Under the pieces are notes generated by a model that was not told the origin of the DNA, made no database searches, and saw only the letters and a program-made list of their open reading frames with translations. From NCBI GenBank assembly GCA_963771275.1, contig CAVYSW010000003.1, forward strand, positions 1,024,001 through 1,088,000: a stretch of 64,000 nt of DNA, read 5' to 3'. Of the stretch, positions 14,571 through 42,776 are shown in pieces. Position numbers and translations under genes: made by a program. Source of the stretch: an uncultured Gemmatimonadales bacterium. Its GTDB lineage: Bacteria; Gemmatimonadota; Gemmatimonadetes; Gemmatimonadales; GWC2-71-9. How positions within the stretch are numbered: position 1 is the stretch's first letter; every line of letters starts with the position of its first letter.

Positions 14571-16055
14571 GTGACCCCGCTCGACTGGGTGCTCCTGGCC
14601 ACGGCCGCCTTGCTCGCCGCCGGCCTCTCGCTCTGGCTCGTGCGGCGCACCCGCGAGGCGATCCGGGCCTGGTTCCGTCGGGCCGTGCTGCGCGTCGTGC
14701 ACCGCTTCCGCGTACGGCTCGACCGCTACAAGCTGGTGCGCCGGCAGACGGTGCGGGACGAGCTGCTGCTCGACGACCAAGTCCACGCCGCCATCCGGGA
14801 GCACTGCCGGACGCACGGCCTGTCCGAGGTCGAGGTGCGGGCCCGGGTCGAGGCGTACATCCACGAGATCGTCCCGTTCTTCAACGTCCTGTCGTACTAT
14901 CGGATCGGCTACAACCTCGCCCGCCTGCTGATCAACCTGCTCTACCGGGTGAGCGTCGCGCACGCCGACCGCCGGGCCCTCGACAACATCCCGCGCCGCG
15001 ACGTGGTCGTCTACCTGATGAACCACCGCTCGAACGCGGACTACGTCGTGCTGGCCTATGTGCTGGCCGAAGGGGTGAGCATCAGCTACGCCGTCGGCGA
15101 ATGGGCGCGGGTCTGGCCCCTGGAGTACGTGTTCAAGTCGTTCGGCTCCTATTTCATCCGCCGCCGCTACCGCGAGCCGCTGTACCACGCGGTGCTCGAG
15201 CGCTACGTGGAGCTGATCACGCGGAACGGGGTGACGCAGGGCGTCTTCCTCGAGGGCGGCCTGAGCAGGGACGGCGCGCTCCGCCCCGCGAAGATCGGGC
15301 TGCTCGACTACATCGCCCGCACGCTGCGGGAAGATGAGTTCGACCGCGATATCTGGCTGGTGCCGGTCGCGCTCAACTACGACCGCGTGCTCGAGGACCG
15401 CTCGCTCATCCGGGAGCTCGCCGAGGGCGTCGAGCGAACGGGCCGGGCGCGCCGGCTCGGCGGCGTCGCGCACTACTTCGGCTGGAACGTCCTCCGGCTG
15501 CTGACCGGCCGGCTGCAGCGCTATGGACGCGCGGCGGTGAACTTCGGGACGCCGCTCTCGGTGCGCGCCTGGGTCGCCGGCCGGCCGGGTGTGCTCGACC
15601 TCAAGCGCGAGGAGCGCCTGCCACAGATCCAGCACCTGGCCGATACGATGCTCGCCCGGATCGCCGACATCGTGCCGGTCACCGCCGTGCCGCTCACGGC
15701 CGCCGCGCTGCTCGCGTTCGGTGAGACTGCCGTGCGGCATGGTGACCTCGTCGCCAAGATCGCCACCTACCGCGACCACCTGCTGGAACGCGACGCCAAG
15801 CTGGTCCACGCGGAGCAGGATGCGACGGCGATCCTCGACCGGGCGTGGCGCACGTTCCGCATGCGCCGCCTGGTCGTGCGGGACGGCGACACCTACGTCA
15901 TCCTGCCGTCCCACCGACCGCTGCTCGAGTACTACGCCAACACGATTCGCCACCTGCTGCCGCGCGAGCGGCGCGTGAGCGAGCCACATCCGGCGCGGGA
16001 GATGGACGAGTCGCTGCCCAGACTGCGCCGGTCGGAGGACGGCCTGAAGGCGTGA
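14571..16055 (+). CDS. Glycerol-3-phosphate acyltransferase (PlsB-like)
   Basis: HxxxxD motif (NHRSNADY), GSYFIRR, FLEGGLSRDG and PVALNYDRVLE. Confidence 0.85.
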   Translation: MTPLDWVLLATAALLAAGLSLWLVRRTREAIRAWFRRAVLRVVHRFRVRLDRYKLVRRQTVRDELLLDDQVHAAIREHCRTHGLSEVEVRARVEAYIHEIVPFFNVLSYYRIGYNLARLLINLLYRVSVAHADRRALDNIPRRDVVVYLMNHRSNADYVVLAYVLAEGVSISYAVGEWARVWPLEYVFKSFGSYFIRRRYREPLYHAVLERYVELITRNGVTQGVFLEGGLSRDGALRPAKIGLLDYIARTLREDEFDRDIWLVPVALNYDRVLEDRSLIRELAEGVERTGRARRLGGVAHYFGWNVLRLLTGRLQRYGRAAVNFGTPLSVRAWVAGRPGVLDLKREERLPQIQHLADTMLARIADIVPVTAVPLTAAALLAFGETAVRHGDLVAKIATYRDHLLERDAKLVHAEQDATAILDRAWRTFRMRRLVVRDGDTYVILPSHRPLLEYYANTIRHLLPRERRVSEPHPAREMDESLPRLRRSEDGLKA

Positions 16056-16166
16056 CGCGTCGTTTTGCACCGGCGTGCATCCATCCCGTACGCTCGACCG
16101 GAGCGGCGCCTCGTAGGTTGCTCCATCCCGTTATCCCGTGATCCCACCATCGCCTATCTTCCTGCC

Positions 16167-17150
16167 ATGTCCACTCCCGTGAACATCCCGGCTCTCACCG
16201 TCGGTGAGCGGGTCCAGGGCGCGTTTCTGGTGCTTGACGTGGAACAGCACACACCGGAAACCGCCAATCCGTTCACCGTGCTCCGGCTCGGCAACCACAC
16301 GGGCGCGATCCCAAGTGAGCCCTTCTGGCTCGAGCGCGCCGCCGAGATCGCGGGGCTGCGCCGCGGGCATGTGGTGCAGGTGATCGGCGAGGTCGCGGAG
16401 TATCGCGAGCGCAAGCAGCTCAAGGTGACCTCGATCCGCGCGCTTCCCGCGGGCATGGTGGAGCTGGCCACGCTGCTGCCGTCGGTGGGTCCTGTCGAGC
16501 GCTACTGGGAGACGCTGGACGGCTGGCGGCGCGAGATCGCCAAGCCACGGCTCGCGCACGTGCTCGCCCTGTTCTACGAGGACGGTGACTTCCGCCGCGC
16601 CTACGAGCAGTGCCCGGCGGCGGTGCACGGGCACCACGCCGTCCTGGGCGGCTTGCTCAAGCACACCATCGAGGTGGCGGCGATCGCCCGCACGATCGCA
16701 CGGGCCTGCGGCGCGGACTGGGACCTCGTGCTTGCCGGCACGCTGCTGCACGACATCGGCAAGATCGAGGCGTACCGTTGGGACGGGCTGTTCGACCACA
16801 CCGCCGTCGGACGCCTGCTGGGGCACGTGGTGCTCGGCGCGTTGATGCTCGATCGGCGGCTGCACGAGGTGCGCGAGCCCCCCTGCACCATGCTGGAGCG
16901 CGACCTCCTGCTGCACATCGTCCTGGCGCACCACGGCCGGCTCGAGTTCGGCAGTCCCGTGCAGCCCATGCTGCTGGAGGCCGAGGTGATCCACTGGGCC
17001 GACAACGCGAGCGCCAAGACCGCGAGCTTTGCCGAAGCGCTGGCCGACGTGGAGGAGTTCCCCGATGGCCTGCTCTCGAGACCGGTGTGGGCGCTCGATC
17101 GACGGCGGGTTTTCAGGGGGACGAGCGACTGGGGGGGCCCGGGGGGGTGA
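16167..17150 (+). CDS. OB-fold + HD-domain 3'-5' exoribonuclease, YhaM/Cbf1 family
   Basis: Start re-called at MSTPVN. Motifs PAA..HHA..GGLLKHT, LLHDIGK, GRLLGHV, HIVLAHHGRLEFGSP and EAEVIHWAD. Confidence 0.9.
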   Translation: MSTPVNIPALTVGERVQGAFLVLDVEQHTPETANPFTVLRLGNHTGAIPSEPFWLERAAEIAGLRRGHVVQVIGEVAEYRERKQLKVTSIRALPAGMVELATLLPSVGPVERYWETLDGWRREIAKPRLAHVLALFYEDGDFRRAYEQCPAAVHGHHAVLGGLLKHTIEVAAIARTIARACGADWDLVLAGTLLHDIGKIEAYRWDGLFDHTAVGRLLGHVVLGALMLDRRLHEVREPPCTMLERDLLLHIVLAHHGRLEFGSPVQPMLLEAEVIHWADNASAKTASFAEALADVEEFPDGLLSRPVWALDRRRVFRGTSDWGGPGG

Positions 17151-17355
17151 CCTCAGCCGCCAACCGTTCTACGGCCCGCTCACCCCGGGTCACGGCCCGC
17201 AGGATGGCCAGGCCGAGCGGCTTGGCGGGCGGTGCTGCATCGCGCAGCAGCAGCTGCACGGCACAGCGGATCGCCGACAACGCCGCTCGCAGCTCCGCCA
17301 GCGCCGCGCGGCGCATGGCCACTCTGCCTTTCGGCATCAAGTACCGGGGTCCCAT
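17113..17355 (-). CDS. Small hypothetical protein (80 aa) resembling a His-less HisKA dimerisation helix pair
   Basis: Extended -10 (TGTTACCAT) lies 6 nt before ATG 17355. 'LAELRAALSAIRCAVQLL' resembles AHELRxPLxAI. Overlaps the yhaM-like 3' end by 38 nt. Confidence 0.5.
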   Translation of the reverse strand: MGPRYLMPKGRVAMRRAALAELRAALSAIRCAVQLLLRDAAPPAKPLGLAILRAVTRGERAVERLAAEVTPPGPPSRSSP

Positions 17356-17436
17356 GTCACGATGGTAACAGGCGGCCAACAGCCGCACGCCATCGTTCCT
17401 TCGCGGCGCGCAGCACTCGATCACACGGGGTTCACC

Positions 17437-17482
17437 ACAAAACGAAACGGCGGGCCGACCCTTGCGGGCTGCCCGCCGTCTC
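17437..17482 (-). terminator. Intrinsic terminator closing the candidate ncRNA
   Basis: Minus strand GAGACGGCGGGC-AGCCC-GCAA-GGGUC-GGCCCGCCGUUUC followed by GUUUUGU. Confidence 0.8.
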
Positions 17483-17866
17483 CGCACCAGTTACCCGGAG
17501 TCAGGGGATTCACTCCCTCTGTTCTTCTCCCCGTCGCCGCCGCGTGGACTGATGCGTCTGCGGTTGAGCGTCCGGGGGCTCCGGCTTCCATCCCCAAGCA
17601 GCCTGGCCGGGCCGCGAGGTTCGCCGGTGCGAGCGCTGCGAGTCGGATCGCGTCGCGGAGCGACCCTTCGCACTGCACGCCGAGGCGCCGCGTCGGCGTG
17701 GATGAGGCACGCGACTGGCCTCACCTGCCCGGGTCGGAGTCGCCACCCGGATCATCGGACGCCTGAGCCCTTGATTGCGTCGGCGCCCTCCCCGGAATTC
17801 CCGCCCGAGCCGTCACATAGGGCGTAATCGAGATAGAGAATCCCGACCCTTCCCCCGTGCAACCGC
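17437..17866 (-). ncRNA. Candidate ~430-nt structured ncRNA of unrecognised family
   Basis: Own promoter and terminator; 5' and 3' ends are complementary; nested long-range helices and four consecutive hairpins; no credible ORF. Confidence 0.7.
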
Positions 17867-17871
17867 ATGCC

Positions 17872-17899
17872 AATATAGGGGCGCGCCCGGACCCCGCAA
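17872..17899 (-). promoter_or_regulatory. sigma70-type promoter of the candidate ncRNA
   Basis: Minus strand TTGCGG (17899-17894), 16-nt spacer, TATATT (17877-17872). Confidence 0.65.
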
Positions 17900-17931
17900 G
17901 CGCCGCTGTTCCTTCGGTTTACGCCGCTTCA

Positions 17932-18049
17932 TGTGCATAAGATGTTGATCGCTAAACACCACGGCTCCGCGTGGTTGTGCCGCCTGTCCACAGGCTGTGG
18001 ACTTGTCGAGAACGGGCTGCTGGGGCCGTCAACATGATGTCGTGGACAA
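17932..18049. promoter_or_regulatory. Cluster of DnaA-box-like 9-mers with an IHF-like site
   Basis: TTATGCACA (rc 17932-40), CTGTCCACA (17984-92), AAGTCCACA (rc 17996-18004), TTGTCCACG (rc 18041-49); GATCAACATCTTA (rc 17938-50) versus IHF consensus WATCAANNNNTTR. Confidence 0.55.
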
Positions 18050-18090
18050 CCTGGCGTCCCGACCTGGAAGGACCGGGCTGCAGAGCCGGT

Positions 18091-18636
18091 TTACTGGGTC
18101 ACGACGGGCAGTTTGAAGCCCATGGCGGCGGCGAAGCGCGCGGCAGCGGATTGGTACACGGCGAGCAGATGCTGCACTTGGGCGGTGCGGTAGCGAGCCC
18201 ACTCGCGCACCGTGTCGGCTTGGGCCCCCGGCCCCGCTGGGCCAAGCCCGCGCACGCACTCTTGATCGAGGCCGGTGTCGAGTGCGCGAATCGCCATCCC
18301 GAGCGAGTCCCTCGCCGCGGCAAGTCGGACGCCTCCGCGCGCGCGCGCGAGGGCGGGGAGCGCCTCACGCAGCGGCGGGCGCGCCGCGGCGCAGGTGCGG
18401 GACAGGCGCTCCGCCTTCGCCAGCACCGTCGCGTCTCCCGCGGTCTGCAGGTCGCGTCGCAGCTCGTTGGCGCTGGTGGAGACGGCGTTCAATGCGTCGC
18501 GCAGCCCCTCGAGCATCCCGCGGTAGTACTGCGCCGCGCTGTCGAGTGGGGGGTCCTGCCTGGGGGGCGTCACCACCTGCAGCGCCTGCGACGAGGCCGG
18601 CCCGAGCACCGCGAGCAACAGGACCCAGGGCCTCAC
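18091..18636 (-). CDS. Exported helical hypothetical protein
   Basis: Signal peptide (RPWVLLLAVLGPASSQA); GTGA overlap with the upstream gene. Confidence 0.65.
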   Translation of the reverse strand: MRPWVLLLAVLGPASSQALQVVTPPRQDPPLDSAAQYYRGMLEGLRDALNAVSTSANELRRDLQTAGDATVLAKAERLSRTCAAARPPLREALPALARARGGVRLAAARDSLGMAIRALDTGLDQECVRGLGPAGPGAQADTVREWARYRTAQVQHLLAVYQSAAARFAAAMGFKLPVVTQ

Positions 18637-19250
18637 GTCTCGCCGCCCACTTCCTCGTACACGAACGGATCACCGCCGCGGCGCGGCGCGAACAGCATGC
18701 CGGCGGCGCTGACCGCGAACCAGCCGGCGATCAGTTGATTGGAGACCTGCGGTGGCTGTCCGTGAAACAGGGCGGCGAGCCAGCGTCTGACGTGGCGCAG
18801 CTCGGGCGCGCGCTTCGACAGCGCCGAAAGAACGGCCCCGCCGCCTTGAGTAGCCCGGAGGAAGTGGGCCAGCGCGTGTGCCCGCTGCGCGAACTCGAAC
18901 GCCCGGACGCCGGGCTCGTCATACAACAGGCTGCCTTCGTAGGGATCGGCGGGCGGTGCGTCCATCCGGGGCCCGATGTAGACGAACACCCGCCGGCCAT
19001 CGCGGCGTCGCTCGACCATCGCCGCGGCGGTCTCTCCGAGACGGGCCGCATGGACGTGGTCGTCCTCATTGAGGATCCCGACTGCCAGGGTCCACTCCAG
19101 CACGGCCAGCGCGTTATGCAGGGGACAGCCGACCTCGTCGTCGTACGCCACCAAGCGCGGCGCCTCTCCGGCCCGCTGGAAAAAATGCCCCAGCGCGTCC
19201 CCCCGATCGGTGAAGGTGAGCGTCGTGCGTGTCGCGGCTGGTACGGTCAT
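18633..19250 (-). CDS. Hypothetical protein with internal duplication
   Basis: Start re-called at MTVPAAT. Repeated unit FTDRGDALGHFFQRA / FAQRAHALAHFLRAT. Confidence 0.7.
   Translation of the reverse strand: MTVPAATRTTLTFTDRGDALGHFFQRAGEAPRLVAYDDEVGCPLHNALAVLEWTLAVGILNEDDHVHAARLGETAAAMVERRRDGRRVFVYIGPRMDAPPADPYEGSLLYDEPGVRAFEFAQRAHALAHFLRATQGGGAVLSALSKRAPELRHVRRWLAALFHGQPPQVSNQLIAGWFAVSAAGMLFAPRRGGDPFVYEEVGGET

Positions 19251-42703: not shown

Positions 42704-42776
<73 letters not shown>

Follow-up and report, generated by a model that had tools for sequence, protein, structure and literature searches.

A large structured RNA found in two families of Gemmatimonadales and its association with an orphan protein gene

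In the window analyzed here, a stretch of 64,000 nucleotides (nt) from an uncultured Gemmatimonadales bacterium (GenBank assembly GCA_963771275.1, contig CAVYSW010000003.1, positions 1,024,001 to 1,088,000), a gap is found between a convergent HD-domain gene on the plus strand and two genes on the minus strand, and the question raised by this locus is what the gap encodes. A sequence-only reading of the window had placed in it a free-standing RNA gene of about 430 nt on the minus strand and had likened its product to 6S RNA and to the actinobacterial RNA Ms1. That an RNA gene is present at 17866-17437 (minus strand) is almost certain. Comparative genomics identifies its G+C-rich product as a large lineage-specific noncoding RNA that has no known family, in keeping with the earlier proposal, and the fold predicted for it is not that of a 6S RNA. 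The RNA family, its fold with two tertiary helices, and its link to a neighboring gene appear to be new. This neighbor, designated geneA (18633-19250, minus strand), encodes an orphan protein of 205 residues that is the candidate partner of the RNA. The reading that we prefer, with a probability of about 45%, is that the full-length RNA and the geneA product form an RNA-protein module, a partnership suggested by their co-occurrence and adjacency. In what follows, all features of the RNA gene are on the minus strand.

The RNA is predicted to be an independent transcription unit with its own sigma-70-type promoter and an intrinsic terminator. Its start (17866-17864) comes from promoter spacing only, and the unit of about 430 nt would run from there to the end of a U-run at 17437. 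A -35-like hexamer TTGCGG (17899-17894) and a -10-like hexamer TATATT (17877-17872) are separated by a 16-nt spacer, as the sequence-only reading had placed them, and both are kept in all 20 aligned homologs, which have CTTGCG or CTTGCA at the first site and the family pattern TAnnTT at the second. The terminator that had been proposed also stands: it occupies 17482-17437 and consists of a long G+C-rich hairpin, in which 17482-17471 pairs with 17455-17444, followed by UUUCGUUUUGU, which finishes at 17437. Pairing in the stem reaches 92.7%, 10 of its 11 pairs have compensatory changes, and the terminators of the 20 aligned homologs vary in sequence while the stem and the U-run are always formed. 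A simple consensus scanner for promoters and terminators called neither element at this locus, and the assignment of both therefore rests on conservation. On the 5′ side of the -35 hexamer, a block of the form TGCACA ... GTAAnCCGAAGnAA ... GGCRC (17937-17900) is conserved in alignments that span both families in which the RNA occurs, and may serve as an UP element or regulator site. When the bacterium's own genome was searched for the pattern of this block, three matches were obtained versus four for the control, and no regulon was thus revealed. Two looser partial copies of the block are located in the same genome at C3:846111-846132 and C10:446238-446259, both on the minus strand.

The structured character of the product is indicated by folding and by covariation. 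The minus strand folds with an energy of -223.8 kcal/mol (z = -2.57; 1 of 100 shuffles was as good), whereas the fold of the plus strand is no better than that of shuffles (z = -0.16), in agreement with the strand chosen in the sequence-only reading. The RNAalifold consensus of 20 homologs has 107 pairs, 62 of which show two-sided compensatory changes. In an alignment of the central 144 nt (A2), which comprises 35 sequences (the 20 homologs and 15 further copies), 96.7% of cells are paired and two-sided changes occur in 29 of the 38 pairs; these values were reached by 0 of 500 shuffles, and pairings that had been slid along the alignment were only 34-43% paired. In a set of 99 distinct near-full-length homologs, pairing is 87-99% in each of the 17 helical segments, and compensatory pairs occur in 16 of these. 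A ranking by mutual information was heavily contaminated by clade-level background and was used only to nominate pairs, which were then checked singly. Two of the genomes are unpublished, namely G020 (locus L006) and G084 (locus L055). Each contributes one row to the alignments A1 and A2 and to the set of 99 sequences, and counts as one genome in the distributions of the RNA and of geneA given below; omission of the two lowers each count by one, and no claim depends on either of them alone.

The conservation might instead reflect a small protein-coding gene or a DNA site, in which case there would be no RNA gene, but the probability of this is negligible. In its favor, open reading frames (ORFs) of 77-245 residues, of the kind found in high-GC DNA, overlap the region, and their translations match relatives. 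The tblastn matches of one of these, ORF 17029-17766, arise because the DNA itself is conserved. None of the overlapping ORFs has a Pfam match, they remain open in only 7, 19, 24, 25, and 45 of the 99 homologs, and only 12 of 509 runs of insertions or deletions in the RNA core are multiples of three, so that the frame is kept in 2.4% of cases. These features, together with the two-sided compensatory changes throughout, stand against a coding function, and the region of the RNA gene is non-coding. A further ORF of 124 residues (17113-17487, minus strand), which separates the terminator from the end of the convergent HD-domain gene, has a homolog at 1 of 63 other RNA loci and no family match, and is probably not a gene.

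No Rfam 15 family matches positions 17000-18300 even at E ≤ 10 (4227 families, including the OLE RNA, RF01071), and the sole match at gathering score in the whole window is a tRNA (42704-42776, minus strand; 68.9 bits). The sequence-only reading had noted that signatures of RNase P RNA, transfer-messenger RNA (tmRNA), and signal recognition particle (SRP) RNA are lacking at this locus. All three RNAs are found elsewhere in the genome (271.6, 153.2, and 46.1 bits, respectively), and a divergent version of any of them was rejected as the identity of the element. The RNase P RNA is located at G000:C3:1091269-1091631 (minus strand), about 3.3 kilobases (kb) past the end of the window. A full-text literature search, whose scope excluded subscription journals and supplements, returned no relevant paper on such an RNA in organisms with names beginning in Gemmatimonad-.

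When 41 related genomes were searched by BLAST, 32 were matched, with identities of 69-85% outside the bacterium's own genome. The matches are distributed by family, with 23 of 24 genomes in family f1, 8 of 8 in family f3, and none of 8 in the sister family f2. R1, a covariance model built on the RNA core, was applied to a phylum-wide sample of 151 genomes and matched 73 of them: 70 of 71 genomes in f1 and both of those in f3 have the RNA, and it is absent from all 31 in f2 and from all 47 in nine further families. Within the searched set, the RNA family is confined to two families of Gemmatimonadales. A motif scan of named genome records gave at least 118 stretches. Of the 80 that were examined, R1 confirmed 54, with scores of 103-164 bits, and every one of these is labeled Gemmatimonad-; the other 26, of which 25 are from other phyla and 1 is from a Gemmatimonadales record, are read as chance matches to the motif.

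The consensus fold of the RNA consists of a 5′ domain (H1 and H2), a pseudoknotted core (three hairpins with H6 and H7), and a branched 3′ domain (H8-H10). In the 5′ domain, H1 (17857-17818) is a hairpin with a conserved GGGGAAGGGU / ACGCC internal loop, 87.5% paired and with compensatory changes in 11 of 12 pairs, and H2 (17810-17727) is a long interrupted hairpin with an invariant CAAGGGC apical loop and four helical segments that are 96-99% paired. A K-turn in H1 was weighed by eye and left undecided. The three hairpins of the core are H3 (17725-17701; 99.1% paired), with the loop GUCGCG at 17715-17710, H4 (17700-17676), with the loop GGCGC at 17689-17685, and H5 (17672-17637; 98% paired), with the loop CGCGAC at 17657-17652. 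They are followed by a linker GCGCU (17636-17632) and by the 3′ part of the molecule (17631-17483), in which H6 encloses H7, H8, H9, and H10 and the helices are 93-99% paired. H6 is a long-range helix (17631-17623 with 17491-17483) with compensatory changes in eight of nine pairs. Within it lie H7 (17619-17593) and H8 (17583-17579 with 17500-17496), and within H8 lie H9 (17577-17529) and H10 (17521-17502). Four central hairpins had been proposed in the sequence-only reading. Three of these, GGUGAGGC/GCCUCAUC, CACGCCGA/UCGGCGUG, and GGGUCGC/GCGAUCC, recur in the consensus as H3, H4, and the tip of H5; the fourth, CCGGGU/ACCCGG, is lost, being only 74.5% paired, with each of its arms paired elsewhere within the long hairpin.

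Two tertiary helices of the core are supported by covariation. The first is a six-pair kissing interaction between the loops of H3 and H5, in which 98.8% of cells are paired over the 99 sequences; its outer pair is GC in 87, AU in 8, CG in 1, and GU in 1 of these, and in A2 the kiss is 96.2% paired with double changes in the divergent copies. The second is a five-pair pseudoknot between the loop of H4 and the linker at 17636-17632. In A2, 175 of 175 of its cells are paired as against 18-57% when the pairing is slid, and the central pair is CG in 56 and UA in 43 of the 99 sequences; the nested alternative that RNAalifold offers for the same bases has one-sided changes only. A third candidate, between GGGC of the H2 loop and 17569-17566, is 93.7% complementary and is neither supported nor excluded because it is nearly invariant. 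Long runs of invariant nucleotides also occupy loops and junctions of the core. These features would suit a ribozyme in which the doubly pseudoknotted, invariant core is the catalytic center and the geneA protein is a cofactor or is irrelevant. The long invariant runs and the locking of three hairpins by two tertiary helices speak for this explanation, and RNAs with catalytic or ligand-binding functions are typically constrained to this degree. Against it, none of the ribozyme families in Rfam 15 matches the RNA and no conserved cleavage-site signature was identified, and a ribozyme is accordingly regarded as improbable.

The sequence-only reading had proposed a different architecture, in which three long-range stems bring the ends of the molecule together, and had taken it to suggest a 6S/Ms1-like RNA, possibly one to which RNA polymerase binds by way of a long irregular closing stem with an open bubble. 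In the 99 homologs, pairing of the three stems reaches only 52.3, 51.5, and 67.8% of cells, as compared with the 87-99% of real helices. The arms of these stems and of the CCGGGU/ACCCGG hairpin belong to the covarying helices H1, H2, H8-H10, and H6, so that the molecule does not form a 6S-like rod. With closing stems that lack conservation and a branched, pseudoknotted consensus in place of a rod with a central bubble, neither the topology nor the polymerase-binding role based on it is upheld. Some properties of the locus would suit such an RNA. Like 6S RNA (RF00013) and Ms1, it is predicted to have a free-standing gene with a strong-looking conserved promoter and a terminator of its own, sometimes with paralogous copies; two or three copies are present in some genomes, and 6S-1 and 6S-2 are an example of multiple 6S copies per genome. 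In addition, RF00013 gives no hit in the genome studied here, which is 96.7% complete. The same model is silent in the window, at 17000-18300 (E ≤ 10), and in every one of 41 genomes from the order. The occurrence of 6S RNA does not complement that of the present RNA because the eight f2 genomes that lack the latter are equally silent, and the silence itself says little because the control matched only 5 of 14 well-known genomes. The RNA also differs from 6S RNA in being two to three times longer (187 model positions for 6S). Ms1 itself, which had been considered because of the exoribonuclease-like neighbor, was rejected. According to its published description, Ms1 is syntenic with a HAD-IB hydrolase / oxidoreductase (PMC9130861) and not with an exoribonuclease. 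Here the RNA is flanked by genes for a YhaM-like HD protein and a PlsB-like acyltransferase and by geneA and a second gene of no known family, geneB, so that this synteny is absent. Nor is the host actinobacterial, the named geneA homologs and the 54 confirmed RNA loci all being labeled Gemmatimonad-. An RNA of the 6S/Ms1 type is thus considered very unlikely.

The RNA occurs in variants that differ in the domains they contain. The bacterium whose DNA is in the window has one copy, and many f1 genomes have two or three R1 matches each. The dispersed extra copies (L028, L034, L040, and L203-L222), which number one or two in many of the f1 genomes, contain the core and the 3′ domain but have no recognizable H1/H2 and no geneA within 2.5 kb. 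They are taken to lack H1 and most of H2 because their alignment to the family profile starts only at about position 100-150. In three genera (L036 = G018, L039 = G022, and L041 = G013), the terminator follows directly after H7 and the 3′ domain is absent, with geneA still adjacent. The part common to all copies is the pseudoknotted core. In genome G091, the copy beside geneA scores lower than the dispersed copy. The presence of one to three copies per genome, the extra ones at unrelated sites, could be taken as a sign that the RNA serves a mobile element as guide or structural component. However, no conserved gene, transposase, or nuclease is found around 23 of the extra copies, the main copy occupies a fixed syntenic site, and geneA has no match in PADLOC and a single non-significant row in PHROGs (E 0.085), so that an origin of this kind is highly unlikely.

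The gene that accompanies the RNA is geneA. Among the related genomes its distribution is the same as that of the RNA (f1, 23 of 24; f3, 8 of 8; f2, 0 of 8). A profile of 32 geneA orthologs (A3) matches the same 73 of the 151 genomes of the phylum as R1, with one match in each, so that the gene is single-copy. In 72 of these 73 genomes geneA is on the same contig as a copy of the RNA and within about 1.6 kb of it (coordinates compared by hand); the exception is G165, in which the best RNA match is 614 nt from the end of a contig. A geneA homolog is also present at 57 of the 63 other RNA loci. In f1 the gene is upstream of the RNA and on its strand, and in f3 it lies beyond the RNA 3′ end and is convergent, with the RNA convergent with yhaM in both families. 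Because order and orientation differ between f1 and f3, the adjacency of geneA has outlived at least one rearrangement. Genome G102 (f1; 97% complete) lacks both the RNA, for which there is only an 18.6-bit noise hit, and geneA. In G006 (73% complete), geneA is at the end of a contig and the RNA was not found.

The association extends to the form of the RNA. A total of 82 distinct copies with at least 1.5 kb of flanking sequence were scored for an alignable 5′ domain and for geneA nearby. Both are present for 50 copies and both absent for 21; 8 copies have geneA nearby without an alignable 5′ domain, and 3 have the 5′ domain without geneA, counts that overstate the number of independent events because the genomes are kin. 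These data bear on a rival explanation, namely that the RNA is a stand-alone structured RNA (a scaffold, sponge, or regulator) that is unrelated to geneA, the two having been gained once as neighbors in a common ancestor. Such an ancestry would fit the fact that all carriers are related, and the 21 core-only copies without geneA nearby are readily accommodated by it. It is less consistent with the retention of geneA beside the RNA in nearly all carriers in spite of the change of order and orientation between families, with the loss of other neighbors (homologs of the yhaM-like gene occur at only 21 and of the plsB-like gene at 9 of the 63 loci), with the joint absence in G102, and with the tracking of geneA adjacency by the 5′ domain. 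On balance we regard the stand-alone RNA as a possible but doubtful explanation.

The geneA product belongs to no known family. Searches of Pfam (E ≤ 10), NCBIfam, and PADLOC returned no match for it, and a Protein Data Bank sequence-profile search gave nothing convincing. All 1100 close homologs are hypothetical or unnamed proteins, and the few that carry an organism name are from Gemmatimonadota, Gemmatimonadales, or Gemmatimonadetes only. A profile search of 1.84 billion representatives recovered just 133 proteins, mostly fragments of the geneA family, which appears from these searches to be a narrow orphan family. The AlphaFold2 model is a confident α+β structure (predicted local distance difference test 84.2; predicted template modeling score 0.81). 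In structural searches with this model, rows for triphosphate-tunnel proteins (CYTH/TTM) and for Mediator Med18/20 recur at Z 3.9-4.6 and were not counted as evidence, and the best ESM Atlas score, 0.90 to an unnamed cluster with a recognition value of 1859, was likewise set aside as under the level at which that tool is reliable. Invariant in the family are, among others, a GCP motif, ER, GPR, and several arginine, glutamate, and histidine residues, which would also fit an enzyme.

Several of the results weigh against an RNA-protein module. The co-occurrence in 73 of 73 genomes corresponds to few independent events because the carriers are kin, and it might be explained by a single shared gain, a single shared loss, and synteny that was inherited. 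Genome G024 (99% complete) contains the RNA core (154.9 bits), in a copy that begins after H1, and gives no match for geneA at E ≤ 1. In the bacterium studied here there is but the single copy of the RNA. The model of the geneA protein resembles no fold above noise, nucleic-acid-binding folds included (best Foldseek E 0.025; best Z of two VIA searches 5.4-5.9), and the protein is acidic, with a median isoelectric point of 5.5 (range 5.0-6.3 among 32 orthologs), unlike most RNA-binding proteins, which counts against a simple RNA-binding role. The acidity, the lack of a recognizable RNA-binding fold, and the genome that has the RNA without geneA are equally points in favor of a stand-alone RNA.

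Part of the expression data belongs with these reservations. Sequencing runs that carry the DNA of this stretch are labeled as peat, soil, freshwater-sediment, and wetland metagenomes and as a coded "organism A", and the best of them may be the sample from which the genome came; four runs, chosen with this stretch itself, were aligned to 17000-18300 at a likeness of at least 88%. Two raw-read RNA sequencing runs, which share a species label with runs that carry the DNA, gave 0 reads, a result that is no test of expression. In metatranscriptome X15 a single 320-nt contig covers 17490-17805 with eight differences, and in X16, from a different study, eight pieces fall within 17486-17791, two of which (88 and 113 nt) are identical to the window. 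The contigs from both are found only inside 17486-17805, with nothing on the flanking genes. They fit a discrete expressed RNA and carry no ends or strand, and the pieces derive from relatives, since most of the X16 contigs continue into unlike sequence.

Adjacent genes other than geneA are less regularly associated with the RNA. Between geneA and the RNA lies geneB (18091-18636, minus strand), which overlaps the geneA stop codon by 4 nt and encodes a protein of 181 residues with an N terminus that by eye is hydrophobic and signal peptide-like. It has homologs at 14 of the 63 RNA loci and no family match, and has the look of an insertion, specific to its lineage, between geneA and the RNA. The convergent gene on the other side (16065-17150, plus strand) encodes the YhaM-like HD/OB-fold protein that the sequence-only reading had recognized as an exoribonuclease-like neighbor; the HD domain is matched in Pfam (1.2e-16), and the NCBIfam YhaM model is matched at 1.9e-38, with 132 bits as against a cut-off of 460. 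It is preceded, after a gap of 9 nt, by a gene for a PlsB-like glycerol-3-phosphate acyltransferase of 494 residues (14571-16055, plus strand), which scores well below the NCBIfam cut-off, and these two genes may form an operon. DnaA-box-like sites had also been pointed out upstream of the RNA and are indeed present, as TTGTCCACG and the palindrome GTCCACAG-CC-TGTGGAC at 17995-18049, between geneB and the RNA promoter. The conservation of the heptamer at -182 is limited to the genus, where it is present in four of the five same-genus loci listed, and a DnaA-box-like heptamer of any kind within 260 nt upstream of the RNA is found in 22 of 81 homologs and is not family-wide.

In general arrangement the locus has parallels among known RNAs. 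The OLE RNA of Firmicutes is a large, ornate, lineage-restricted RNA of about 600 nt, the gene for which lies beside that of its partner protein (Oap) and the biochemical role of which is unclear. The RNA described here (about 430 nt) is similarly large, ornate, and lineage-restricted and lies beside a candidate partner gene, but it has no sequence or structure match to OLE, is from Gemmatimonadota, and has as its neighbor a predicted soluble acidic protein of no known family. For bacterial Ro60 (Rsr), a Y RNA gene lies beside the gene of its protein partner, and there can be more than one RNA paralog per genome. A noncoding RNA gene that is kept beside one protein gene and has paralogs is common to both systems; in contrast, geneA has no TROVE domain (no Pfam hit at E ≤ 10), and the RNA is far larger than a Y RNA and has no Rfam match. 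With GOLLD, ROOL, raiA, and HEARO the RNA shares its discovery by comparative genomics, rich covariation, and tertiary contacts. It differs from them in the lack of an Rfam match and in the strictly co-occurring orphan protein gene, which is not known for most of those RNAs.

If the RNA and the geneA product do form a module, a full-length copy of the RNA would work with the product of the neighboring gene. The 5′ domain would be the protein-specific part of the RNA, and the pseudoknotted core would carry an activity that is independent of the protein, since core-only copies occur and one carrier genome lacks geneA. An extension of this proposal, that the two make up a new ribonucleoprotein of uncultured soil Gemmatimonadales with a catalytic or ligand-binding core and a 5′ domain that recruits the geneA protein to act on or with the RNA, is speculative and rather unlikely. 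Bacterial RNAs that are both large and intricately folded are uncommon, and several have proved to be ribozymes, riboswitches, or the cores of RNA-protein machines. The present RNA is abundant in a major soil lineage, as indicated by its occurrence in nearly all sampled f1 genomes, and its absence from f2, if that family holds the cultured Gemmatimonas-type strains, may explain why there is neither an Rfam family nor a paper for it. The natural deletion variants, both core-only and 3′-truncated, and the availability of an orphan partner candidate make the question testable. If the ribonucleoprotein proposal is true, RNA and geneA protein would make up a new RNA-plus-protein machine of these bacteria and not another regulatory small RNA.

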